DNA of 38,209 nt from Candidatus Zixiibacteriota bacterium (GCA_041742355.1 JBGSIV010000198.1:1-38209), one strand, 5' to 3'. Shown: positions 1-25,670, counted from the stretch's first letter. The notes: a model not told the origin generated them from the sequence alone. A program made the numbers and translations.

Positions 1-2349
1 AATATTTACGACTGGTACGGTTCGTACCTCGATCCGCCGATCCCGGTACACTTCGCTCCCCGTCAACGAGGCACGGCGGAAGAACCGTTTCGCCCGTTCT
101 ACATTGCCCCATACCACAATCACGACGGATTCGCCAATCCCGGCTGCGATCGTGATCGCTACTATCAGATGAGCCAACCCGAGTGGGATTACGATTTGAC
201 AGACATGTCTCGCATCGGGGACACCAACCCGATCTGGCTGCCGCCACAGCAGCTCTGGCTCGACTCGTTGCGGTACGGCGGGAGTATCCGGAGTCATCTG
301 GCTATGGGGCCATTCGATTTGGCGCCGGACAGCGCCTTCCGCATTGTCTACGCCATGTTCGGCGCTGACGCTGTCCTGACCGACCCGACGACCGGCAGTT
401 TCCTGTGCGACGGCGATATTGACGAGTACCGTCGCCGGCTGAATCTGCAGGTCTTTCGTGACCGAGGCGAAGACGCTAAGGTCATGGCGCAACATCTGCT
501 CAGCCCGCAGTTCTCCCCCACCGGCTTGGAGGTGAGCCTCTTCGACGCCGATTCGGTTACTCTCAACTGGGATGCGCGCGTCTTTCCGGATATCAGCGGT
601 TACCGCGTTCGACTCTCCCCCATACCGGCGTCAGCTTTCGTCGCTCCGGGTCAGGTGTGCCCTAGCGCTACTCCGCTTGATGGCAGCGTCACGTACACAG
701 CCGCTCCGGAGCAAACGTCATTGACCATTCGCAATCTAACCCCCGGCAAGTACTACTTCGCGCAAATCGCGCATGAGTACGATGGCCGATACGGGCAGTA
801 CTCCTATCCGGTCGTTGTCGGATACGGCAACGCTGCGCTCACACCCGATTTCCCCAAGCCGCAGAGGGACTTCGCCTTTGTCTGCCCGGGCGATACGGGG
901 GCCATTCTGCAGTGGGACCATCCGGATGACGGCTTGACGGCGTACTACAAAATCTACCGCAGGACGGATTCGGCGGCCGCCGCCAACCGGCATCGTCCTT
1001 TCTTTGCGGTCGACACAGCGCTCACTTCGCTGCAACCCCTGACCGGCGGCAGGGCGGGGGATCTCCCCTGGTTCTACTACGAAATGAAGGCGTATGACTC
1101 GGTTCCGGTCGGCCAGACGGCGTACTGCGACCGCAATGTTCAGCCGGAAGCCTGGTACTGGGTGAGCGCGGTCAGCCGCCACGGCTACGAGTCGGAGTTT
1201 TCACCCCTCATACGTCTGCATCCGTCGCTGCAGCCCGACCGCGACGTCCTGGTTATTCTCGGCTCGACCACCTCTTTCCACGACTTCGTCATACGGGACT
1301 CGCTGTACGCCTATTACCACAGGCTCCTGGATGGCCGCGACTACGACCTGTACGACTGGGCCGACACCAACGGCAATGTCCACGCCGACCATATTACGTA
1401 CCGGGTCAATTGGGAGGATCTCGCCCGGTATCGGCTCGTTATCGTGGAAGACCTGCCGTCGACGGCGATCCTCACGACGGCCGCCGAGGCTCGCTACAAA
1501 ACACTTCAACGGCTAATCGCTTCGGGCCGGGATGTCCTCTATTTCGGGGTGCCCGGGGGAGGACGGTATCCCTTCAGTCTTTCGACCACGGCCAGCCTGG
1601 TTCGCTGCCCGGATACATCGGCCGAAGTCCGGTGTTTTGGAGTGGACTCAGTGGCCTTGCGGCCGTGGAAGGGAGTCTACAACGTTCTCGGTACGGTCGA
1701 CTCGCTGGCCGGGTTTGCCGGGGCCGAACCGGCTGCCGAGGGATTGCCGCCGCTTTCGGTTGACCTCACCTCCTGCCGGCTTACCAGCGCTCTCACGCGC
1801 CTTTTCGCCCCCGGCCCCTGTCTGCCCATGACTCCGGCGTTTTATCCGAGCGAAGAGGCCGAGGTTATCTACCGCTTCCAGTCCGCATATCCGGAGACCT
1901 CGGAACTCGACGGCCTCCCCTGCGGAGTGCGCATGCGTCACCCCGGCGCCAACGCCTACGCGTTCTCGTTTCACCTCTGGGGTATGGACGAGTCGGACGC
2001 CCGGGCCCTGGTCGACTTCGCTCTCGACCACCAGGAACCCGACACGGCCTTTACGCCCCCTCCCCTCTCCCTGACTTTCCGGCTTTACCAGAACTACCCC
2101 AATCCGTTCAACCCTTCCACGACCATTTCTTACGACCTTTTCCAGTCCGGCCATGTCCGACTTGAGGTGTTCAATATCCTCGGGCAAACCGTTGCCACGC
2201 TCGTCGACGCCGATCTGCCCGCCGGTGTTTACGAGGCGATCTGGAACGGCTGCGATGAGCGTGGGCGGCCGGCGGCTTCCGGCGTCTACCTCTATCGCCT
2301 CGAAACGGCCGGATCGAGCCGGACGCGGAAGATGCTGCTGGTGAAATAG
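1..2349 (+). CDS. Secreted FN3-domain protein with C-terminal FlgD-Ig/T9SS type A sorting-like domain (5' partial)
   Basis: Frame 1 is open from base 1 (NIYDWYGSYL...), so the gene starts upstream of the window. FN3-like segments (VTLNW...GYRV...LTPGKYYF; LQW...YYKIYR...YWVSAV). C-terminus FRLYQNYPNPFNPSTTISY...SGVYLYRL...RKMLLVK. Confidence 0.8.
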   Translation, partial: NIYDWYGSYLDPPIPVHFAPRQRGTAEEPFRPFYIAPYHNHDGFANPGCDRDRYYQMSQPEWDYDLTDMSRIGDTNPIWLPPQQLWLDSLRYGGSIRSHLAMGPFDLAPDSAFRIVYAMFGADAVLTDPTTGSFLCDGDIDEYRRRLNLQVFRDRGEDAKVMAQHLLSPQFSPTGLEVSLFDADSVTLNWDARVFPDISGYRVRLSPIPASAFVAPGQVCPSATPLDGSVTYTAAPEQTSLTIRNLTPGKYYFAQIAHEYDGRYGQYSYPVVVGYGNAALTPDFPKPQRDFAFVCPGDTGAILQWDHPDDGLTAYYKIYRRTDSAAAANRHRPFFAVDTALTSLQPLTGGRAGDLPWFYYEMKAYDSVPVGQTAYCDRNVQPEAWYWVSAVSRHGYESEFSPLIRLHPSLQPDRDVLVILGSTTSFHDFVIRDSLYAYYHRLLDGRDYDLYDWADTNGNVHADHITYRVNWEDLARYRLVIVEDLPSTAILTTAAEARYKTLQRLIASGRDVLYFGVPGGGRYPFSLSTTASLVRCPDTSAEVRCFGVDSVALRPWKGVYNVLGTVDSLAGFAGAEPAAEGLPPLSVDLTSCRLTSALTRLFAPGPCLPMTPAFYPSEEAEVIYRFQSAYPETSELDGLPCGVRMRHPGANAYAFSFHLWGMDESDARALVDFALDHQEPDTAFTPPPLSLTFRLYQNYPNPFNPSTTISYDLFQSGHVRLEVFNILGQTVATLVDADLPAGVYEAIWNGCDERGRPAASGVYLYRLETAGSSRTRKMLLVK

Positions 2350-10005: not shown

Positions 10006-12495
10006 TTGCTAAATCGGATCGTGACACGAAGAGCAGGGATTGCTCTTGGCTGCCTTCTGGCAGTACTCCTTCTGGCACAGCTGGGCCAGGCCCAGAACAG
10101 CGACCAGTTCCGGGTCGTCGATGTCCAGGTGGAAGGCAACCGCGTCGCCACCCGGTCGCTGATCCTCGGTGTCGCCGCGATTGAGGTCGGCAGTCCGCTC
10201 ACGCCGACGGCCGTTGCCGAGTCGATCCGGCGCCTCTACGCCCTCGGGATCTTCCGCGACATCTCGATTGATGCCGAGGAGGTCACGGGCGGCATCAAAG
10301 TCACTATCAGTGTCGATGAGCTCCCCAAGCTGTCCGGGCTGGAGTTCAAAGGCAACAGCAAGATCAAAGACGACAAGCTCCGGGAAGAACTCGGGTTGGG
10401 CGTGGGCGGTTACATCTCCCCCTACCTCGTCGAACGGAGCCGGGCCGATATCTACGATTTCTACGCCTCCAAGGGCTACTTCCGCGCGGAAATCCGGCCG
10501 GAGCTGGTGTACGCTGATGACTCGACCAGCGCGGTCCTTGAGTTCAATATCGAGGAACGCGATAAGGTCAAGGTCGAACGGGTCGTTATTGAGGGCAACG
10601 AGCGCGTCGAGGACGGCGACCTCGTCGGCAAGATGCGCAACCGCAAGCGGGGGTGGTTCCGCTCCTCCGATTTTGCCCAGGACGAGTTCGAGAGCGACCT
10701 GACCAAGGTCATCGAGGAGTACCACAAGCGCGGCTTCATCGACGCGTACTTGATCGACGATTCCCTGGCGATCGACACCTCCCGCAACCGCATGACGGTG
10801 CATCTGCAGGTGTACGAGGGGCCGCAGTACTATTTCGGGGCGACATCGTTCGAAGGAAACGAAAAGCTCTCCGATGAGCAGTTGCAGCGGGCGCTCAAAC
10901 ACGAGCCCGGCGCGGTGTTCAACCTCGAGAAGTACGATGAGTCCCTCATGGAGGTCGCCTCGGCCTACTACGAGATCGGCCACCTGCACATCCAGATCGA
11001 CGACCAGCGCGCCACCGAAAGCGACACGCTCATAAACATCACGTACAGCATCACTGAAGGTCTTCCGTCGCACATCAACCTGGTCCGGATCGTCGGCAAC
11101 TACAAGACCAAGGATCAGGTGGTACGCCGCGAGTTGTCGGTCATGCCGGGGCAGGTTTTCAACCGGTCGCTCCTGATCCGGTCGGTCCGCGACGCCATGG
11201 CGCTGAACTTCTTCGAGATCGTCGAGCCCAAGCCGGTCGATCTGCCCAGCGGCGACGTTGACCTGGTGTTTGAGGTCAAAGAGAAGCAGACCGGGCAGAT
11301 CTCCGCCGGCGCCGGCTACAACAGCCAGGACAAACTTGTCGGCACGTTTGGCATGGGGATTCCGAATTTCCGCGGGATGGGGCAGAACCTTTCATTCAAC
11401 GTCAATTTTGGCAGCCGCCGCAATTCGTTCTCAGTGTCGTTCACCGAACCGTGGCTGTTCGGACGCCCGACCCTCCTGGGGCTCAACGCCTTTGCCACCA
11501 ACCGGCGCTGGTACGACGACTACACCGAAGGGCGCACCGGCGGATCGATTCGGCTCGGTCGCCGCTTGCGCTGGCCGGACAACTATTTCCGCGTGTACGG
11601 CTCCTACGCCCTCGAGCGCACCAAGTTTTACGATTTCGACGATACCTACGAGGCCAACAGCTCCTATAAGGCGCGGTACTTCTACAACAATCCGACGACC
11701 GCTACCCGATCCGATTCGCTCCTCTCCAGCCGGACCTACGGCCCCTATCCGGGATCGGTCATCGCTTACGGTGAAGAGCCGCTGACCGCTTCGCGTATCG
11801 CCTTCTCGGTCACCCGGGACTCGCGCAACCTGCCCGAGTTCGCCACCAAAGGCTCCATCCTGTCCTACACGATCGAGAAGACGGGCGGGTTTCTCGGCGG
11901 ATACTGGAACTACACCAAGCACGACCTCGAGGTCGCCCAGTTCATTCCCCTCATGTGGGGCTGGGCGATCGCCGCACGCGCGCAGTACGGCGTGGTGACT
12001 TCCCCCCGGGGGGATGACCGTATCCTCGTGTCGGACCGCTTCACCCCGGGCGGCACCGCGTACGACGGCATCGTGCGAGGCTACGATGATGGCAGCCTGA
12101 CCCCTGATTCGGTCGTGACCCAGTCGGACACGTCGTTCTTCTACACCAACCCCAACGCCGTCATCGGCGTCGATCCGCCCGACGACACCACGTTCTCCAA
12201 TTTTACGACCCGGGTGCGGGGCAAGTACATGTTCGTCACCAATGTCGAGCTGCAGGTACCCATTTCCCGGAACCAGTTCTACGGTCTGCTCTTCTTCGAT
12301 GCCGGCAATTCCTGGCTCCATCGTCCTGACATCAATCTCGTCAGCGAGTTGTATAAGAGTGTAGGGTTCGGCTTCCGGATTGTCGTGCCGGCGATAGGCA
12401 CCATCGGCTTCGACTTCGGGTACCCGCTGGACAAAGTCGAGGGCGAGAAACAGAGCTGGAAACCGCACTTCCAGATTGGAACAACGTTCAGATAA
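10006..12495 (+). CDS. bamA: Outer membrane protein assembly factor BamA
   Basis: Signal peptide, five POTRA-like repeats (GN motifs), VKEKQTG at the barrel start, VRGY motif, C-terminal HFQIGTTFR; followed by skp and lpxD. The TTG start is uncertain. Confidence 0.95.
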   Translation: MLNRIVTRRAGIALGCLLAVLLLAQLGQAQNSDQFRVVDVQVEGNRVATRSLILGVAAIEVGSPLTPTAVAESIRRLYALGIFRDISIDAEEVTGGIKVTISVDELPKLSGLEFKGNSKIKDDKLREELGLGVGGYISPYLVERSRADIYDFYASKGYFRAEIRPELVYADDSTSAVLEFNIEERDKVKVERVVIEGNERVEDGDLVGKMRNRKRGWFRSSDFAQDEFESDLTKVIEEYHKRGFIDAYLIDDSLAIDTSRNRMTVHLQVYEGPQYYFGATSFEGNEKLSDEQLQRALKHEPGAVFNLEKYDESLMEVASAYYEIGHLHIQIDDQRATESDTLINITYSITEGLPSHINLVRIVGNYKTKDQVVRRELSVMPGQVFNRSLLIRSVRDAMALNFFEIVEPKPVDLPSGDVDLVFEVKEKQTGQISAGAGYNSQDKLVGTFGMGIPNFRGMGQNLSFNVNFGSRRNSFSVSFTEPWLFGRPTLLGLNAFATNRRWYDDYTEGRTGGSIRLGRRLRWPDNYFRVYGSYALERTKFYDFDDTYEANSSYKARYFYNNPTTATRSDSLLSSRTYGPYPGSVIAYGEEPLTASRIAFSVTRDSRNLPEFATKGSILSYTIEKTGGFLGGYWNYTKHDLEVAQFIPLMWGWAIAARAQYGVVTSPRGDDRILVSDRFTPGGTAYDGIVRGYDDGSLTPDSVVTQSDTSFFYTNPNAVIGVDPPDDTTFSNFTTRVRGKYMFVTNVELQVPISRNQFYGLLFFDAGNSWLHRPDINLVSELYKSVGFGFRIVVPAIGTIGFDFGYPLDKVEGEKQSWKPHFQIGTTFR

Positions 12496-17065: not shown

Positions 17066-17983
17066 GTGGGCGACCGTCGACTTCCGATGTACGTTCATGA
17101 CAAAGCCCTCATGGCCTACGGCCTGATCATGGTTGTGGTCCTGGGAGCGTTCGGTCGCCCCTATCGCGCCTATGTCGACGAGACCATCTTTTACGCCGGT
17201 CTCGCGGTTCTGGCATATGTCGTCGCCCGTTACGTCGATGAAGACCGGAGCGGCTGGCACCGATTTCTGCGGCTTATGTACCCCGCCGTGCTCTTTCCAG
17301 TGCTTTACCGCGAGACCGGCGGAACGATGTTTCTCTTTTTCGATCACTTCTTCGACGCCGAGCTGACGGCATTTGAGTACCGGATACTCGGCGTCAACCC
17401 GACTATATTCATTGACCAACACTTGCTCAACACTTGGACCACCGAAATCCTGTCGCTATGCTACTGGCTATACTACCCTCTCCTGCCCGGATATCTGCTG
17501 CTTGTGTACATCCGGCGAGACTACGATATTGTAAAAAGCTCGATAGCGGCGATGACCATCACGTTCATAGCGGGGTACGTCCTGTTTTTCGTCTACCCAG
17601 TTGAGGGGCCCCGGTGGTTCTTCGCCGATCAGTATCTGAACCCGGTGGAGGGCCCTGTTTTTCGCCCGATGGTGGAGTTCATGATCAGGAATGGCGCGGT
17701 GCGCGGCGGCTGCATGCCGTCGACCCACTACGCCGTCGCCCTCGTGATCACGCTTTTCACGGGCAAGTACTACCCGCGGTGGCTCTGGGTGATGATCCCG
17801 TTGTCCACGGGCTTGGCTCTCGGCACTGTCTGGGGGCGATTTCACTACGTGTCGGACGTCGTGGTCGGCGGCATGATCGCCCTGGCCGTGACTTTCATCG
17901 TCTGGCACACTGCCCCGGATCGCCGGGTGACGAAAACGGCTGCAGCCCCACACAAGGAGGCGTTTCCTTACCATGCATCCTGA
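17066..17983 (+). CDS. PAP2-superfamily membrane protein (Aur1/PAP2_3-like)
   Basis: Multiple TM helices; motifs YPVEGPR, CMPSTH, RFHYVSDV. Confidence 0.85.
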   Translation: MGDRRLPMYVHDKALMAYGLIMVVVLGAFGRPYRAYVDETIFYAGLAVLAYVVARYVDEDRSGWHRFLRLMYPAVLFPVLYRETGGTMFLFFDHFFDAELTAFEYRILGVNPTIFIDQHLLNTWTTEILSLCYWLYYPLLPGYLLLVYIRRDYDIVKSSIAAMTITFIAGYVLFFVYPVEGPRWFFADQYLNPVEGPVFRPMVEFMIRNGAVRGGCMPSTHYAVALVITLFTGKYYPRWLWVMIPLSTGLALGTVWGRFHYVSDVVVGGMIALAVTFIVWHTAPDRRVTKTAAAPHKEAFPYHAS

Positions 17984-18815
17984 ACTAATGCAATTCGGCC
18001 CGATTCATGTCCGCAGCTACGGACTGCTGCTGGCTATTTCGTTCCTGCTGGGCGTCCTGTACATCTGGTGGATCACGAAAAGGCACCGCCGGCCGTTTGA
18101 ACCCTACCTGACGATCGCGTACATCATGACGATCGGCGGGATCGTCGGCGCCCGGCTATTCTATGTTCTCTTCCATCTCGAGGAATTCAAGGGGAACTGG
18201 GGTGCGACTTTCAACCCCTTTGCCTCCAGTGAATTCGGCATTGCCGGGCTGAATCTGTACGGCGGCATTCTCGTGGCCGTGGTCGGGTCGTTCCTTTACG
18301 CGCGCTGGCAGAAACTGCCTGTGCTGGACATTTTTGACTACTTCGCTCCCACCCTCGGCCTCGGGCTTTTCTTCACACGCATCGGCTGTTTTCTGAACGG
18401 CTGCTGCTTCGGGACGCCGACCGACCTCCCCTGGGGAATCAGTTTCCCGGAGGGATCTCTCCCCTACTACGTCTTCGGCAGTACCCACCTGCATCCCTCG
18501 CAGCTCTACAGCTCCCTCTACGGTGCCCTGCTGTTCGTGCTGCTGCACTACATACTCACGCACAGGAAGTTTATCGGGCAGGCAGCGGCGCTGTTCTTCA
18601 TGATCGAAGCGGCCTTCCGCTACGGTATCGAGTACGTGCGTTACTACGAAGAGGAGATGCACTTCACGATCGGTTCGATGCAACCGACCTACAACCAGGT
18701 TATTTCGCTCGGGCTCTTCCTGCTCGGGCTCGGGATCTACCTGTACCAGTCGCGCCGGGCACGCGTGAAGCCGGCTGCTGCGTCTCCGGCGCCTGCCGAA
18801 CGGGCTCGCTCATAG
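17973..18815 (+). CDS. lgt: Prolipoprotein diacylglyceryl transferase
   Basis: RSYG, GARLFYV, RIGCFLNGCCFG, HPSQLY, R...EY.R. Confidence 0.96.
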   Translation: MHPELMQFGPIHVRSYGLLLAISFLLGVLYIWWITKRHRRPFEPYLTIAYIMTIGGIVGARLFYVLFHLEEFKGNWGATFNPFASSEFGIAGLNLYGGILVAVVGSFLYARWQKLPVLDIFDYFAPTLGLGLFFTRIGCFLNGCCFGTPTDLPWGISFPEGSLPYYVFGSTHLHPSQLYSSLYGALLFVLLHYILTHRKFIGQAAALFFMIEAAFRYGIEYVRYYEEEMHFTIGSMQPTYNQVISLGLFLLGLGIYLYQSRRARVKPAAASPAPAERARS

Positions 18816-18879: not shown

Positions 18880-20475
18880 CTACAATCCCCCTCCGGTTGT
18901 ATGGAGGAGTATCCCCTTATCGGCGCAGATCCAACCCTCGTCCTCGTCGATGAAGAACACATCCGACAGATCTTCAGTCACGCCACTGGGCTGTACAGAC
19001 CAGGTTTCACCGTCTTCCGTGTACAGGATCGTGCCACCGGTCCCGACCGCCCAACCTCGGGTAGGGCTAACAAAAGCGGCGGCTGCCAGCCGATGGGTCG
19101 TCGGCGGCGTTTGCGGCAGCCATGATTGCCCGCCGTTGGTCGTGTGGAGGATCGTGCCGGTTTCGCCGAAGATCCAGCCGGTCGTCGCGTTTACGAAAAC
19201 CACACACCACAAGTCGAGTCCGGAGGCCAAGCCGACATCGGCCCATGTCTTGCCGGTATCGGCCGTCAAGAGCACCGCGCCGTTGTTGCCCACCACCCAG
19301 CCGTGCGCGGCATCGAGGAAATACACCCCCTTGAGATCATCGGTGACTCCCGACGTCTGATCGGCCCAGTTCTTGCCACCGTCGTTGGTAGCCAGAATCC
19401 GCCCGGCGTTGCCCACCGCCCAGCCGAAGAGGGAATCGACAAACGAAACGTGGTTCAGCGAAAACGGCCCCGGTGCGGAGATGGCAGTGTTCCAGGTGTC
19501 ACCGCCGTTGACGGTGTATACGATAGTCTGCCCGACCGCCCAGCCGTGGAGTTCATCGGTAAACGTGATATCACCGAGCAACGGGTCAAAAATTACACGC
19601 TCCCCGGAAGGCCACGTAGTTCCTCCGTCCAGCGAACGACTGATTTCACCATCGACTTCGCCCCCCGTGAGCAGGCCGGCCGCGAAACCCGTCTGTGCAT
19701 CGGTGAAGTGCAGCCCGCGAAGGCTGTGCGATGCCGCTGTCCCTTCGTTGCCCGTAATCCACGACCGCACCCAGCTCGCCACCACCAGGCGGCAGGGGAC
19801 GTTTATCGGCGCTTCGGCAAGGGGTGCCGTTATTTTGATCGTATCGTAGTACACTCCCGGCTCAAGCGACTGAATGTCCGCCGACACGATGATCGTATCG
19901 GGTGATGTTCCGGCGGTGGCCGAAAGAGTCATCCAGGAAGCCGTTTTGGCGAGGGTGAAGTCGTACGGGGTGGTGCTGACCCCGGCAATAACCAATTCTT
20001 GCGGTTCCGGATTCGGTTCGCCCGATACCGTGAGGAACAATATGCTGTCGGGTTCCACCGCGACCGCGTTGGTCAACGTAAGCATCACCGGAATGGCGAG
20101 GGGGGAGTTCTCGGCGTAGAGTGCTTCCACCCAGATAGTGTCGTAGTAGACGCCAGCCTGCAGGGAGCCGACACTGATGTTCGCCAGAAAGCTATCGGGC
20201 GCCGGTCCGCTGGTCTGACCAAAGAGGCGCAACCAGTTGCTCCCCCCGGCGATACGGGTTGTGTAGGACAGCTGGCCGCTCCCCTCGGTGGTCACAACCA
20301 CCCACTGCGCCGGGGGATTGATACCGAAGGGAATCTCGCGGATCACCGCGTCGGGCGTGACCCGGAGACGGAGCGGATCGGGCGATACCGATTCGTCCCC
20401 ACACCCACCCCAAATGAGCGCCATCGAGGCCGTGCTCAGTGCCAGCAGAATCGTCGCAGTAAGGCGCTTCACCAT
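18880..20475 (-). CDS. Lipoprotein with two BACON-like Ig domains and a YCF48/BNR-repeat beta-propeller
   Basis: Lipobox-like WGGC. Two repeats of ..W[LM].L...G..PD[ST]...L..GVYYDTI. Repeated F.D...GWAVG..G.IL.T.DGG..W units. GAGGAG RBS. Confidence 0.85.
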   Translation of the reverse strand: MVKRLTATILLALSTASMALIWGGCGDESVSPDPLRLRVTPDAVIREIPFGINPPAQWVVVTTEGSGQLSYTTRIAGGSNWLRLFGQTSGPAPDSFLANISVGSLQAGVYYDTIWVEALYAENSPLAIPVMLTLTNAVAVEPDSILFLTVSGEPNPEPQELVIAGVSTTPYDFTLAKTASWMTLSATAGTSPDTIIVSADIQSLEPGVYYDTIKITAPLAEAPINVPCRLVVASWVRSWITGNEGTAASHSLRGLHFTDAQTGFAAGLLTGGEVDGEISRSLDGGTTWPSGERVIFDPLLGDITFTDELHGWAVGQTIVYTVNGGDTWNTAISAPGPFSLNHVSFVDSLFGWAVGNAGRILATNDGGKNWADQTSGVTDDLKGVYFLDAAHGWVVGNNGAVLLTADTGKTWADVGLASGLDLWCVVFVNATTGWIFGETGTILHTTNGGQSWLPQTPPTTHRLAAAAFVSPTRGWAVGTGGTILYTEDGETWSVQPSGVTEDLSDVFFIDEDEGWICADKGILLHTTGGGL

Positions 20476-20674: not shown

Positions 20675-20703
20675 TTGACAGGAAGTGGCGTTTCCGCTAT
20701 ATT
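20675..20703 (+). promoter_or_regulatory. Sigma70 promoter of the Omp85-kinase-PAP2 operon
   Basis: TTGACA-N17-TATATT, near consensus. Confidence 0.7.
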
Positions 20704-20734
20704 GGCGGCACGATTCCCGATGGGATCAGAAGAC

Positions 20735-22060
20735 ATGAAGCCCAGACGTCGATTACCGTCCCGCTCGCACTTCTCCGCCCGACTGCACCTGCCGCTTTTT
20801 CTCGCTCTGCTTCTGGCAGCGTCAGTCACGTGGGCGCAGGAGCCAGTCGATTCCGCAATGGTTCGGACTCCCGAACCGCCGCGCAAATCGGTGGGAGATC
20901 GTCTGCTCGACATTCCCGAAGAGCTTCTTCGCCTGCCGATTCGTGCAGTCAAAGGGGTGGTCTACGGGGGCATCGAGGCCGCGAACTCCAGCGCCACGGT
21001 CGCTCGATTGGTCGAAAATGCCTTCTCCCCCGCGCCGATCACCGGCCTTTATCCGGTCGCATCGTATGGCTCCAACTCCGGCCTGGTTGGCGGCCTCGGG
21101 TACCGGAATTTCGACTTGCTGCGAGACGGTGACCGCTTCGATCTTCGGGGATCTTACTCTACCCATCAGTACCAGCGATTCCGCATTCGTTACGAGTCCG
21201 CCCTCCCGCCGAACGATCACCCAGCCTATATCATTACTCTGCAATACCGCAAGCGACCGTGGGAGCATTTTTACGGCCTGGGCAATGATTCCCGGCCGGA
21301 AGATCGAGTCGCCTACACCCTCGAACAGACCGGTCTGGATGCATCGGTCAGGCTCCCGCTCGGAAGCGGGGTGGCCGCGCGGGCGCGTGGCGCCATTACC
21401 GCCGACAACATCTTCGACGGCCAGGCCGACCACCTCGTGACCAACCTCGACATCATCCGCGAGTCCCTGGACCTTGACCGCGATGCCACGCGGAGCACGC
21501 GCTATGTCTCGATAGGCGCCGGCCTCGAACACGATTGGCGAGACACGCTCGGCCGGCCCACGCACGGCGGGATAGAGCGGATTGGCGTGACCTACAATCG
21601 CGGGGTCGGCCGATCTGACGACCTCGAGTTCTTCATCACGGAAGTTGAGATTCAGCATTTTCTGAATGTCTTCAGGAAGCGCACTATTGCCGCCCGACTG
21701 CTGATTCGCGAGGTTGATCGACCCGACCAGGCCCCATCGCTCCCCTTCTACTTGAGGAGCGGTCTCGGCGGCGAGGACGACCTGCGCGGCTTCAGCCGTT
21801 CGCGCTTTGTCGACAACGACCTCGCTCTCCTGACCGTGGAATGGCGGTACCCGGTCTGGCGGGTAGTTGACGGATTCATCTTCGTCGATGAAGCCCGCGT
21901 GTTTTCGTCCTTGCGGGATGATTTCTCCTTCCGCGGTTGGCACTCCTCCGCCGGTATCGGCCTGCGCGTCTGGTCGGAGCGGGCGCTCCATGCCAAGGCG
22001 ATGCTCGCCTTCGGCGAGGAGGAACCACGCCTCTACCTTGACTTAGGAGCGGAGTTCTGA
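20735..22060 (+). CDS. Omp85 (BamA/TamA-family) outer membrane beta-barrel, apparently lacking POTRA domains
   Basis: Signal peptide ending VTWA-Q, amphipathic strands, HDWRD, LRGF motif (DLRGFSRSRFVDN), terminal Phe. Only a short N-terminal region precedes the barrel. Confidence 0.85.
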   Translation: MKPRRRLPSRSHFSARLHLPLFLALLLAASVTWAQEPVDSAMVRTPEPPRKSVGDRLLDIPEELLRLPIRAVKGVVYGGIEAANSSATVARLVENAFSPAPITGLYPVASYGSNSGLVGGLGYRNFDLLRDGDRFDLRGSYSTHQYQRFRIRYESALPPNDHPAYIITLQYRKRPWEHFYGLGNDSRPEDRVAYTLEQTGLDASVRLPLGSGVAARARGAITADNIFDGQADHLVTNLDIIRESLDLDRDATRSTRYVSIGAGLEHDWRDTLGRPTHGGIERIGVTYNRGVGRSDDLEFFITEVEIQHFLNVFRKRTIAARLLIREVDRPDQAPSLPFYLRSGLGGEDDLRGFSRSRFVDNDLALLTVEWRYPVWRVVDGFIFVDEARVFSSLRDDFSFRGWHSSAGIGLRVWSERALHAKAMLAFGEEEPRLYLDLGAEF

Positions 22061-23796
22061 TGCGGCGGCGGCATCTCCCATTCTTACTCGGCACTATTGC
22101 CGCCTTGAGCCTCATGGCGCTGGCGGCAGGCTGCGGCGCCCCGCGACCGCAGCTACGACCGGAGGGCCCGTACTGGATCGACGCCGACACGCGCGATATC
22201 CCCGAGCCAGCAGGTGCTGACCCGCGGCTGGCGTGGCAGACGATCGACCGGACCGTTTTCAATCAGCTCGAGCAGTACGCCGATATCGAACGGGACGTTC
22301 GCATTATCCTCGGCGACCGCGAGGAGGCCTGGAACATCAATGCGGTGGACGAGGTGCCGGATTGCTCCTGGTTCACCAACCGCCATGGCTTGCATCGGAT
22401 GAGTCCCGACGAGATCCGACGGGGCGTCAGCCTGACCGGCGGCCCGGACACTACCGGCCCCTGGACGCTGTTCCGCCCGAAAGTCGGCGGCAAGACTCCC
22501 GGCTTCCGGGTCGAGGATCCTCGGGGCAAGCAGTATATCATCAAATTCGACCCGGTGGACAACCCCGAGCTGGCTACCGCCGCCGGGGCGATGGGGGCAC
22601 GATACTTCCACGCCGCCGGCTACAATGTCCCGGAGGAGACGATTGTCTTCTGGCGGCCGGAACAACTGCGCATCCGCGATGGCCTCGCATTCACCGACCG
22701 AAGCGGTATTCGGCGTCCGTTCACTTCCCAGGATTTGCAGGACATCCTGAAGCGGGTCCGCCGCGAACCCGACGGTCGCATCCGCTCCCTTGCGTCGCTG
22801 GCATTGCCCAATGTCAAGGGCCCGTTCAGCTATACCGGCACGCGTGCCGACGACCCCAACGACTGGTGCCGCCACGAGCACCGCCGCGAACTGCGCGGGC
22901 TCTATGTCATTGCTTCGCTCATCAACCACTACGATCTGAAGGACCAGAACTCGTTGGATTGTTATGTCGAGGAGGATGGCCGGTGCTTCCTCAGGCATTA
23001 CCTGATCGATTTCGGCTCGACTTTCGGCTCCAACGGGGATCGACCCAAGGAACCGCTCGTCGGTTATGCCAACGGATTCGATCTGCGCGATGCGATCGTA
23101 TCGATGGTTACGCTCGGCCTGTGGACCTGGCCTTGGGAGAAGGCGCGACCGTACGAGTACCCATCAATCGGCTACTTCGAGTCGCAGATTTTCCGGCCGC
23201 ACAAATTCGACGCCGTCGTTCCGAACCCGGCGCTCGAGAATATGACGAGCCGCGATGCTTACTGGGGAGCCAAAATCGTCATGGCCTTCCGCGACGACGA
23301 CATCAGGGCTATCGTCGACGCCGGGCAGTACTCCGATGCGGCCGCCGCCGACTATCTGCTGCGGACCCTGATCGAGCGGCGAGACAAGATCGGCCGCCAC
23401 TGGTTCGCCAAAGTGAATCCGCTCGACAACTTCATGGTTACCGATGGTTCACAAGGACTGCTGATCGCGTTCGACGACCTTGCGGTGAAATATGACCTTG
23501 AGTCAAGCCATGGCACCCGGTACCGTCATTTCCTGTATCATAACGGCAAACGTCTCGCCCAACCAACTCCGGGAACCGAACGCGTGATCCGGGTGCCTGA
23601 CTCACTGCTGCAGGTGATCTCCAGTCGAGTTGGTGCCGCCGAAGAACCGGAGTCCGGGAATCATCTCGTCCGCATCGATATCCAATCAAAACGCGGGGAT
23701 CAGGGCTGGAGCAAACCGGTTCGCCTGTGGTTATGGCATCAACCCGAGGCATCCGATGCAAGGTTGCGACTGGTCGGAGTGGAGCACATCGATTGA
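22060..23796 (+). CDS. Lipoprotein with predicted atypical (HipA/PI3K/CotH-like) kinase fold
   Basis: Lipobox LAAGC. Motifs GGKTPG, YIIKFD, PELAT, NHYDLKDQN, LIDFG appear in kinase order. TGATG overlap with the upstream gene. Confidence 0.75.
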   Translation: MRRRHLPFLLGTIAALSLMALAAGCGAPRPQLRPEGPYWIDADTRDIPEPAGADPRLAWQTIDRTVFNQLEQYADIERDVRIILGDREEAWNINAVDEVPDCSWFTNRHGLHRMSPDEIRRGVSLTGGPDTTGPWTLFRPKVGGKTPGFRVEDPRGKQYIIKFDPVDNPELATAAGAMGARYFHAAGYNVPEETIVFWRPEQLRIRDGLAFTDRSGIRRPFTSQDLQDILKRVRREPDGRIRSLASLALPNVKGPFSYTGTRADDPNDWCRHEHRRELRGLYVIASLINHYDLKDQNSLDCYVEEDGRCFLRHYLIDFGSTFGSNGDRPKEPLVGYANGFDLRDAIVSMVTLGLWTWPWEKARPYEYPSIGYFESQIFRPHKFDAVVPNPALENMTSRDAYWGAKIVMAFRDDDIRAIVDAGQYSDAAAADYLLRTLIERRDKIGRHWFAKVNPLDNFMVTDGSQGLLIAFDDLAVKYDLESSHGTRYRHFLYHNGKRLAQPTPGTERVIRVPDSLLQVISSRVGAAEEPESGNHLVRIDIQSKRGDQGWSKPVRLWLWHQPEASDARLRLVGVEHID

Positions 23797-24641
23797 TGCG
23801 GATTCGCTCCATAGTCATTTCGCTGCTGGTCATCGCGACAGTCTGCTCGACCGCGGCTGCCCAGAATGACCCGGATTACCTCGAATTCGAGGAACTGGCC
23901 GCCATTGGCGCCGGATCATTCGCTTTGTTCGGAGCGGGGAAATTGCTGAACCAATGGGATTCGACCTACCCCTCCCGCTGGACCGGTCCGCTTCCGGGTG
24001 AGCCGGCGATTCAGCGCTGGCTTGGGGGATCGTACTATCCCGGTAAGAGCAACTTCCTCGATGGCGACTTCGGGTCGGCTCTCACGCCAATTATCGGCGG
24101 ACTCATTATCGGTGCAGCCGACCTCAAATGGCCCGCCTCCAAGCGAGGCAAGGACTTCGGACAGGATCTCTATGTTTACGGCTGCGGGCTCCTGGCCACC
24201 AAGGGGCTTACCGCAATCGCCAAAGGGTTCATCGCCCGTCCCCGCCCGCTTCTGGTTCTCCACCCGGATCTGGCGGCGACACGCACCGACCGCGATGATC
24301 GTTACGATCGCCAGGCGTTCTTCTCCGGCCATGCCTCCAGCGCGTTCTTCTCGATGACCTACGCCAACAAGCGGGTGCGCGGCACGATGCGACGGGTAAT
24401 GACCGCCGACTCCTACCGCGACTGGCGCTGGCTGCCGCCGATCCTGTCGTACGGCTGGGCGACCTTTGTGGGCTGGTCCCGGATCCACGCCTACAAGCAC
24501 TTTATAAGCGATGTCGCGGTCGGAGCGCTTGCGGGGTGGGTTATGGCCGAGCTGTTTTACTACTTCGGTGACCGCAGCTATGACGACTCTGTAAACGACT
24601 CTCGGGCCCCGGCCATGTTCACGTTGACTATTCCGTTCTGA
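23796..24641 (+). CDS. Exported PAP2-family phosphatase
   Basis: Signal peptide ending AAA-Q. PAP2 motifs KGFIARPRP, FSGH, SRIHAYKHFISD. TGATG overlap. Confidence 0.88.
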   Translation: MRIRSIVISLLVIATVCSTAAAQNDPDYLEFEELAAIGAGSFALFGAGKLLNQWDSTYPSRWTGPLPGEPAIQRWLGGSYYPGKSNFLDGDFGSALTPIIGGLIIGAADLKWPASKRGKDFGQDLYVYGCGLLATKGLTAIAKGFIARPRPLLVLHPDLAATRTDRDDRYDRQAFFSGHASSAFFSMTYANKRVRGTMRRVMTADSYRDWRWLPPILSYGWATFVGWSRIHAYKHFISDVAVGALAGWVMAELFYYFGDRSYDDSVNDSRAPAMFTLTIPF

Positions 24642-24787: not shown

Positions 24788-25606
24788 ATGGATCTGGGCA
24801 ACTGGTTTACCGATCTCTCGCCGATCATTCAGGCTCTATTGGCCACGCTGTTCACCTGGGGAGTCACCGCCCTCGGGGCGGCCGCCGTGTTCACCACCCG
24901 AAACCCGAACCGCAAGGTGCTCGACGGCATGCTGGGATTTGCTGCCGGCGTCATGATTGCCGCAAGCTACTGGTCGCTCCTCGCCCCGGCGATCGCCATG
25001 TCGGAGGGGGGCAGCATGCCATCGTGGTTCCCAGCGCTGGTCGGTTTTCTCATGGGCGCCGTTTTTCTGCGCGGGCTCGACATGACCCTCCCCCACCTCC
25101 ACCTGTTCGAAGAGGTTGGGCACGCCGAGGGGATTAAGACCCGCTGGCACAAGACGACGCTCCTGGTGCTGGCGATCACGCTCCACAACATACCTGAGGG
25201 CCTCGCGGTCGGCATTGCTTTCGGTGCGGTTGCGGTCGGCATGGATTCAGCCACGCTGGGCGGGGCGATCGCGCTGGCGATCGGCATCGGCCTGCAGAAT
25301 TTCCCGGAGGGCGCGGCAGTCTCGATGCCGCTGCGGCGCGAAGGGCTCTCTCGCGGGAAGGCCTTCTGGTACGGTCAGATTTCCGGAATGGTCGAACCTT
25401 TGGCCGGCATGGCCGGCGCCGCCCTCGTGCTTATCGCCCAGCCGATTCTTCCCTATGCTCTCGCCTTTGCGGCCGGCGCCATGATCTTCGTTGTCGTGGA
25501 AGAAGTCATTCCTGAATCCCAGTCCGGCGGCCATCCGCACGCCGCCACCCTCGGCGCCATGCTCGGTTTCGCGGTCATGATGACCCTTGATGTCGCCCTC
25601 GGTTAG
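24788..25606 (+). CDS. ZIP family metal transporter (GufA/ZupT-like)
   Basis: [47 protein letters not shown]. Confidence 0.95.
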
Positions 25607-25636
25607 CCTGGCTCTGCCCCCCAATCCCCCGACCAC

Positions 25637-25670
25637 AAAAAAGAAAGGCAGGATCCTACGGATCCTGCCT
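25637..25670 (-). terminator. Rho-independent terminator of the small Lys/Ala-rich gene
   Basis: AGGCAGGATCC-N3-GGATCCTGCCT followed by TTCTTTTTT on the minus strand. Confidence 0.85.

Follow-up and report, generated by a model that had tools for sequence, protein, structure and literature searches.

The common view is that the periplasm has no ATP supply, and ATP-dependent kinases are not expected there; the atypical kinases Fam20C, CtkA and CotH are located outside the cytoplasm. Among outer-membrane proteins that belong to the Omp85 superfamily, noNterm barrels have been described as resembling those of Metallo-Omp85 proteins, whose PF00149 domain was handled as a protease, and the word kinase is absent from the main text of that article (Heinz and Lithgow 2014, PMC4104836). 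For the NTT family of ATP/ADP carriers, an NTT-HEAT-cNBD architecture has been reported in free-living bacteria, with its function there given as not known (Major et al. 2017, PMC5381601). Here, we analysed a 38,209-nucleotide stretch of DNA from a Candidatus Zixiibacteriota bacterium (GCA_041742355.1, JBGSIV010000198.1:1-38209; the window), in which a three-gene operon on the + strand at 20675..24641 encodes, in this order, an Omp85 barrel, a predicted kinase-fold lipoprotein and a PAP2 phosphatase. The conserved core of the module is the pair of barrel and kinase. A preliminary description made from the sequence of the stretch had proposed the three genes, joined by two TGATG overlaps behind one near-consensus promoter, as a writer/eraser phosphorylation module outside the cytoplasm. 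The reading frames, both overlaps and a promoter match at 11 of 12 positions were all recovered in our analysis, as were the kinase fold (an AlphaFold model that matches atypical kinases) and the PAP2 assignment (PF01569 and three motifs).

The product of the second gene was identified by fold alone: it has no match by sequence in the PDB, no NCBIfam family at E<=1 and no Pfam family at E<=0.1, the profiles of Fam20C, CotH and HipA included. Its AlphaFold (AF2) model has a predicted local distance difference test (pLDDT) score of 94.9, and a Foldseek search with this model returned Fam20C (E 1.5e-5) and CtkA (E 2.4e-5). Alignment with VIA-align gave CtkA (Z 13.3, root-mean-square deviation (rmsd) 3.8, 218 residues aligned), Hydra Fam20 (Z 13.3, rmsd 3.9, 255 aligned), PI4KIIalpha (Z 12.7, rmsd 4.4, 233 aligned) and CotH (Z 11.9, rmsd 4.3, 236 aligned); the top 14 matches are all atypical kinases, in agreement with a bilobal kinase fold. 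The kinase core spans approximately residues 125-452 and is followed by a C-terminal FN3-like domain at approximately 453-565 (FN3 matches at Z 8-8.7). On this confident model, the protein is predicted to adopt a kinase fold of the atypical CtkA/Fam20/PI4K2/CotH type. The nearest named clusters in the ESM Atlas score only 0.79 (a cluster of which 11% of the members are Fam20C) and 0.78 (HipA_2). The family is large, with 773 representatives at E<=1e-30 when clusters are formed at 50% identity, and its closest named relatives are from Zixibacteria.

The kinase motifs are kept in this copy as K162, E170, D292-x-K294-x-x-N297 and D317-F-G, with the roles of K162 (beta3 lysine), D292 (catalytic aspartate), N297 and D317 (metal-binding) assigned by motif order. 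Among 133 diverse relatives, K162 is present in 128, D292 in 127, N297 in 124 and D317 in 127, and in a set of 87 relatives D292, K/R294 and D317 are found in all 87 and N297 in 86. Position 176, likely the alphaC glutamate, is E or D in 119 of the 133. E170 is kept in 39/44 close and 81/87 wider relatives; in Fam20C, an additional glutamate that is essential, E306, precedes the ion-pair residue E311 by five positions (PMC4421793), and judging by this spacing E170 may play the part of E306 and compensate for the glutamate that this copy lacks at position 176. We consider the protein to be probably an active phosphotransferase. The column of the lipobox cysteine, Cys25, holds Cys in 44/44 close and 69/87 wider relatives, as a pattern match only. 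Six homologues of 1160 amino acids (P0272-P0277, one named Acidobacteriota) lack both the beta3 lysine and the catalytic aspartate and are, by their sequences, likely pseudokinases; they bear a further, unassigned C-terminal region of 600 amino acids. Direct fusion to a barrel within the kinase family was not seen: a weak search for long proteins gave 6 proteins, none with a barrel, and an apparent fusion in one locus (L095), a 985-residue 'kinase' open reading frame, was discarded because it overlaps a metallophosphoesterase in another frame.

The first gene encodes a protein matching Omp85 (PF01103; E 5.7e-15, 56 bits at a cut-off of 24) and NF047779 (E 3e-18), and a profile of 87 relatives matches the solved structures of BamA and TamA along the full length of the barrel (best E 2.8e-15). 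Both motifs defined for these proteins (loop-6 RG(F/Y) and lid-lock FxDxG; PMC11358297) are recognisable. Loop 6 has LRGF at 350-353 (R351 in 81/87 and G352 in 83/87 relatives), and the lid lock FxDx(G/A) has F383 and D385, with D/E385 in 84/87; position 387 is G in 81/87 relatives and Ala in this copy. The N-terminus resembles a signal peptide and the terminal residue is Phe. On these motif and profile matches, the protein can be assigned to the Omp85 superfamily, as the preliminary description had it. Only approximately 65 residues separate the signal peptide from the barrel, which lacks the POTRA domains of BamA, TamA and TpsB (no POTRA match in Pfam at E<=0.1), and, with no PF00149 domain fused to it, the barrel stands alone and is not a Metallo-Omp85. 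The segment of approximately 65 residues is conserved (P61 in 82/87 relatives), matches no known domain and is longer than the 22-43 N-terminal residues of leptospiral noNterm Omp85 proteins (PMC11358297). The true BamA had been placed elsewhere in the window, where a BamA-type gene (PF01103 and five POTRA stretches) is indeed found; the name 'second' Omp85 falls short, however, as 8 Omp85-like genes in the genome, the BamA-type gene included, match the barrel profile. Six kinase-negative Zixibacteria (G064, G078, G106, G135, G062 and G130) have a shorter related barrel of approximately 376 amino acids (E 1e-42 to 1e-55).

To analyse gene neighbourhoods, we used 20 loci from the Zixibacteria phylum and the best 80 of at least 561 relatives from a GTDB scan, with duplicates (L055, L059) dropped; we classed 27 loci as Zixibacteria-type on the basis of their phylum handle, their title or identity. 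As anticipated in the preliminary description, kinase homologues adjoin Omp85 genes: an Omp85 gene lies directly upstream of the kinase in 27/27 Zixibacteria-type loci and in 71/74 others (98/101 scorable, from many phyla), a count that leaves out 7 more kinase genes at contig edges. Two of the three kinases without an upstream barrel are second kinases of tandem pairs. An even draw of 24 Acidobacteriota loci gave 20 with a barrel, 3 at contig edges and 1 without (20/21 scorable). Six distant short Acidobacteriota kinases (E 1e-6 to 1e-9; L155-L160), with no barrel match within 1.5 kb, were left out of the claim. The family is present in 41/151 Zixibacteria and 24/121 Acidobacteriota genomes sampled, and named isolates with the module are Aliifodinibius salipaludis WN023 (L080) and Halalkalibaculum sp. 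DA3122 (L120).

Eight loci contain two barrel-kinase pairs. For 15 of the 16 kinases in them, the kinase's own barrel, and not the paralogous one, is the closer to the barrel of the kinase's nearest relative elsewhere. Prediction of the barrel-kinase complex gave 0.45 versus 0.00 for the best control, with runs agreeing in at least 88% of contacts and a partner pLDDT of at least 83; this mark is reached by 116/157 solved and 2/215 mismatched pairs, and at <=0.60 by 18 solved pairs and both mismatches, so that the prediction lends weak support to a contact between the two proteins. Taken as a whole, barrel and kinase very probably form a functional pair. Twelve Zixibacteria-type loci (e.g., L053:4158-5435, + strand) have a gene for an exported protein of 420 amino acids, mostly directly after the kinase, which has no Pfam family and a weak hint of a RelA_SpoT nucleotidyltransferase (E 0.008); this protein was not found in the source genome.

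After the barrel, the most tightly co-distributed partner of the kinase is NTT. Genes for NTT (PF03219), a profile of which matches solved ATP/ADP carriers with E 4e-45, lie within 10 kb of the kinase in 20/27 Zixibacteria-type and 36/71 other loci. Across 151 genomes of the Zixibacteria phylum, NTT is present in 39 of the 41 kinase-positive genomes (those with a full-length kinase) versus 0 of the 110 kinase-negative ones, and in Acidobacteriota in 21/24 kinase-positive versus 31/97 other genomes. Five of the 11 NTT-positive Bacteroidota genomes were checked with the kinase profile; two have a kinase next to NTT and three do not. One contig of the source genome (G000:C307:1-6450; L210) carries genes for a histidine kinase, NTT-HEAT, a cyclic nucleotide (cNMP)-binding protein, a histidine kinase and a receiver in a row. 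A block of this type adjoins the barrel-kinase operon in many relatives, and histidine kinase or receiver genes are present in 13/20 Zixibacteria loci.

The third gene matches PAP2 (PF01569, E 2.8e-19) and has all three of what we take to be the catalytic motifs of this family, K-x6-RP, FSGH and SR-x5-H-x3-D. The protein has a signal-peptide-like N-terminus and ends in an amphipathic beta-strand with a terminal Phe; such a strand, hydrophobic at -1/-3/-5, is present in 19/22 linked PAP2s and suggests outer-membrane targeting. Docking of this strand specifically on the operon's barrel was considered and dropped, since PAP2s of kinase-negative genomes have the same tail. A PAP2 orthologue is linked in 20/27 Zixibacteria-type loci, and any of three phosphatase profiles is found in 19/23 long loci of this type. 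By genome, PAP2 is present in 35/41 kinase-positive versus 7/110 kinase-negative members of the phylum; in one of these seven, its gene is next to what is left of a kinase gene. Of the six kinase genomes without PAP2, four have a calcineurin-like metallophosphoesterase directly behind the kinase, and in the other two the kinase is divergent, in one case lying on a contig of 3 kb. In 39/41 genomes the kinase is thus accompanied by a phosphatase from either of two unrelated families, and metallophosphoesterase replaces PAP2 in some lineages. The phosphatase is a looser partner than the barrel, and not every locus has all three genes. When 50 further open reading frames beside kinases were scanned with Pfam, the set (46 unlabelled neighbours and 4 labelled) revealed no new phosphatase family. 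Polyphosphate kinase 2 (PPK2) and sulfatase genes, being single cases that do not recur, were rejected as partners; the PPK2 gene, seen in a single Latescibacterota locus (L088:7770-8588, + strand), immediately precedes the barrel gene. In genome G150 (L216, C45:57030-58199), an intact PAP2 gene has as its neighbour the C-terminal remnant of a kinase, interrupted by a stop, and neither NTT nor a cognate barrel was found in this genome; by its sequence, this looks like loss of the module.

A fused counterpart came from a locus (L128:16475-20215, + strand) in which a protein of 1247 amino acids near the kinase has a metallophosphoesterase-like N-terminus and an Omp85 C-terminus, i.e., the Metallo-Omp85 architecture. 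The middle domain of such proteins has conserved GGG-x-Q, DWDRH-x-x-QW and DRD motifs, and its model (pLDDT 86.3) matches CotH (Z 15.5, rmsd 4.2, 255 aligned), PI4KIIalpha (Z 14.2) and CtkA (E 6.6e-7). As modelled, Metallo-Omp85 proteins hold a CotH-like kinase-fold middle domain. It is present in 62/151 genomes of the Bacteroidota phylum, mostly in frames of approximately 1250 or 900 amino acids; in the loci examined, all three of phosphatase, kinase fold and barrel are combined in the long forms, whereas the short forms consist of kinase fold plus barrel and in several cases have PAP2 close by. The profile of the operon barrel also matches Metallo-Omp85 barrels, and the middle domain is distant from the operon kinase (profile-profile probability 25%, E 7.6e-4). 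Among Metallo-Omp85 loci (L128, L161-L209), recurrent genes are those for HD/PycTM (13/19), cyclase-like (12/19), SdiA-regulated (11/19), PAP2 (5/19) and PPK1 (2/19) proteins, with cyclase-like or HD/PycTM genes in 15/19. In four of the five with PAP2, the fusion lacks a phosphatase domain and none was found beside it. These loci may represent a separate undescribed system.

Phosphatase, kinase fold and barrel are therefore joined twice over, which supports the idea of a writer and an eraser working with a barrel. We propose that, on the periplasmic side of the outer membrane, the kinase lipoprotein would be docked to the barrel encoded with it, that NTT would swap cytoplasmic ATP for periplasmic ADP, and that the kinase would phosphorylate an envelope substrate from which PAP2, or metallophosphoesterase in other lineages, would take the phosphate off; the HEAT tail of NTT, the cNMP-binding protein and the neighbouring two-component genes could act as regulators. 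Folds, catalytic motifs, adjacency, cognate pairing and co-distribution with NTT and phosphatase are observed, and on them we put forward this ATP-fed periplasmic cycle tentatively, judging the whole chain to fall just short of an even chance. Its parts differ in strength. We lean slightly towards NTT as the ATP source of the kinase. The weakest step is the substrate: we favour a lipid or glycolipid of the outer membrane to which the barrel would give access, given that PAP2 enzymes act on lipid phosphates, that the close folds include PI4KIIalpha and MavQ and that PlpD provides a precedent of an Omp85 holding an enzyme-type domain in the periplasm, and yet we hold a lipid or glycolipid to be possible rather than probable. 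The writer/eraser idea of the preliminary description gains from the phosphatases that accompany the kinase in Zixibacteria and that are fused in Metallo-Omp85, and loses from their scarcity in long loci elsewhere; of its three-part make-up, barrel and kinase proved constant, but the nucleotide carrier had been missed.

A number of observations weigh against such a cycle. Position 176 is Gly in this kinase, and E or D occurs there in 0/44 close Zixibacteria relatives, which speaks against activity. Genes that lie side by side are passed on together irrespective of any contact between their products, and the cognate pairing, while it fits co-evolving partners, also fits plain co-inheritance of adjacent DNA. 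The co-occurrence counts are not independent, as kin share genes. The NTT cluster of the source genome is on another contig, apart from the operon; 31 Acidobacteriota without the kinase have NTT; two Zixibacteria with divergent kinases (G132, G141) have neither NTT nor PAP2 that we could find; and the characterised NTTs are all from parasites or organelles (PMC5381601). The fused Bacteroidota proteins are not tied to NTT either (present in 4/62 genomes with the domain versus 7/89 without), and this indicates that kinase folds linked to a barrel do not in general need NTT to supply them with ATP. Outside Zixibacteria-type loci, PAP2 is linked in only 3/71, and any phosphatase was found within 10 kb in only 9/33 long loci. 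Finally, seven kinase-negative genomes keep PAP2, with the same beta-strand tail in 6/6 loci checked (G140 left out).

These points can be arranged in other ways. The barrel might serve to flip or secrete the kinase lipoprotein, which on the outside of the cell would phosphorylate surface glycans, the S-layer or proteins of other cells with extracellular or released ATP. A barrel-then-passenger operon with 1:1 cognate pairing does resemble two-partner secretion, the closest folds (CtkA, Fam20C and CotH) act outside cells, and the Bacteroidota barrel-kinase fusions mostly occur without NTT. In addition, the leptospiral noNterm Omp85 genes of group 4 are followed by a gene for a large lipoprotein (PMC11358297). 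However, TpsB translocators have the POTRA domains that this barrel lacks (PMC4104836), the enzyme domain of PlpD, once thought to be exported, stays periplasmic (PMC11116518), and the co-distribution with an inner-membrane nucleotide carrier (39/41 versus 0/110) points to the periplasm. We consider an export pair unlikely and, with some reserve, favour a kinase that faces the periplasm. It is just as unlikely, in our judgement, that the kinase fold merely binds or hydrolyses extracellular nucleotide, admitted by the barrel and trimmed by the phosphatase, with NTT-HEAT and the cNMP-binding protein importing it or signalling to histidine kinases and receivers. The near-invariance of D292, K/R294, N297 and D317 (86-87/87) runs counter to this, given that a sensor alone needs no catalytic base, and so does the retention, in 81/87 relatives, of E170 at the spacing of Fam20C E306. 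Nucleotide sensing or scavenging would, however, account for the loss of the alphaC glutamate throughout the close clade (0/44) and for the six long Acidobacteriota homologues without K162 and D292, and would suit the histidine kinase and receiver genes, which are found in 13/20 Zixibacteria loci and flank NTT on C307, as well as the cyclase-like or HD/PycTM genes in 15/19 Metallo-Omp85 loci. Known NTTs, moreover, import nucleotides (PMC5381601).

The unit may also be smaller than proposed, consisting of barrel and kinase only, with PAP2 being an exported phosphatase for lipids at large (like LpxE/LpxF or PgpB) which settled nearby in Zixibacteria and with the NTT link reflecting shared horizontal transfer. 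The rarity of linked PAP2 outside Zixibacteria (3/71), its presence in 7/110 kinase-negative genomes, its varying position and strand, and the C-terminal strand in PAP2s unlinked to the kinase would all follow. Such an incidental phosphatase would not lead one to expect a metallophosphoesterase directly behind the kinase in 4/6 genomes without PAP2, nor a phosphatase fused to kinase fold and barrel in Metallo-Omp85, with PAP2 near 5/19 such loci, and we regard it as the least likely of the three alternatives. Taken beyond this genome, the ATP-fed cycle would be a widespread one in the diderm periplasm, with ATP export by NTT or NTT-HEAT, a barrel-docked kinase acting on outer-membrane lipids or proteins, and reversal by a phosphatase; this is conceivable, and we would doubt it sooner than affirm it.

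The features of the window are collected in the table below. The start given by the gene finder for the barrel, TTG 20675, coincides with the -35 box of the promoter-like site. Scanning for promoters gave 4 sites in 6 kb versus 1.6 +/- 1.5 in shuffles, and the site in question points away from the divergent gene. At the barrel/kinase junction, TGA 22058-60 overlaps ATG 22060-62, and at the kinase/PAP2 junction TGA 23794-96 overlaps ATG 23796-98, each with GGAG upstream. All three proteins appear to have export signals, as read from the sequence (a lipobox-like LAAG-C25 in the kinase and hydrophobic N-termini). The G+C content of the three genes (61-62%) is close to that of the window (60.8%) and the genome (60.4%), and each gene is single copy in the genome by tblastn. 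Two 150-base pieces of the kinase gene are covered by one sequencing run of uncertain type, which is uninformative on expression. The divergent lipoprotein gene and zupT are absent from recurrent neighbour clusters and were not counted as parts of the module.

Table. Features of the operon and of other parts of the window.
Feature	Position	Strand	Basis or remarks
Sigma-70-type promoter-like site, TTGACA-17-TATATT	20675-20703	+	11/12 consensus matches; predicted only
POTRA-less Omp85-family barrel, 441 amino acids from ATG	20735-22060	+	PF01103 and NF047779; alternative start ATG 20720
Predicted lipoprotein with atypical kinase-like core and FN3-like domain, 578 amino acids	22060-23796	+	AlphaFold model, fold matches
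PAP2 phosphatase, 281 amino acids	23796-24641	+	PF01569 and motifs read from sequence
FN3 protein	169-2349	+	C-terminal sorting domain, FlgD/T9SS-like
BamA-type gene	10006-12495		PF01103 and five POTRA stretches
lgt	17973-18815		
Divergent predicted lipoprotein	18880-20475	-	BACON/Ig-like repeats (by eye) and YCF48/BNR propeller (PF14870)
ZIP-family zinc transporter (zupT, 24788-25606) with strong hairpin after it (25646-25670)	24788-25670	+	

A literature search that left supplements and most subscription papers outside turned up neither an account of the module nor one of a kinase within Metallo-Omp85. Every part comes from a known superfamily; the module itself is likely undescribed. A kinase family tied to a dedicated Omp85 barrel and to ATP/ADP carriers makes the assumption of a periplasm without ATP directly testable, and the kinase fold hidden in Metallo-Omp85 extends the question to 62/151 genomes of the Bacteroidota phylum. 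If the proposed cycle is correct, bacteria would have in it a counterpart of the phosphorylation that Fam20C carries out in the secretory pathway, and it would provide a first function for the NTT-HEAT carriers of free-living bacteria and for noNterm and Metallo-Omp85 barrels.

Compared with known systems, the kinase of the operon shares its fold with Fam20C, CtkA, CotH, PI4KIIalpha and HipA (Z 11.9-13.3), possibly including, by spacing, the extra glutamate of Fam20C before alphaC; it differs from them in sequence (9-12% identity), in its predicted anchoring as a lipoprotein, and in being accompanied by its own barrel in the outer membrane and by a linked carrier of ATP. The linked genes for NTT, NTT-HEAT and the following cNMP-binding protein are those of the NTT-HEAT-cNBD carriers, for which the text of Major et al. 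2017 draws no link to a kinase or barrel, the word kinase having 0 occurrences (PMC5381601). Like PlpD and other patatin-like Omp85 proteins (Hanson et al. 2024, PMC11116518), the operon would tie a barrel to an enzyme-type domain kept in the periplasm; PlpD, however, is a fused protein that carries a single POTRA together with a patatin domain, and has no kinase, phosphatase or nucleotide carrier. The likeness to Metallo and noNterm Omp85 proteins (PMC4104836) lies in a barrel without POTRA and in the PF00149 domain of Metallo-Omp85, a phosphatase of the kind that replaces PAP2 in some loci, whereas the operon has three separate genes and a kinase of a distant family with a lipid anchor, an FN3 domain and a link to NTT.

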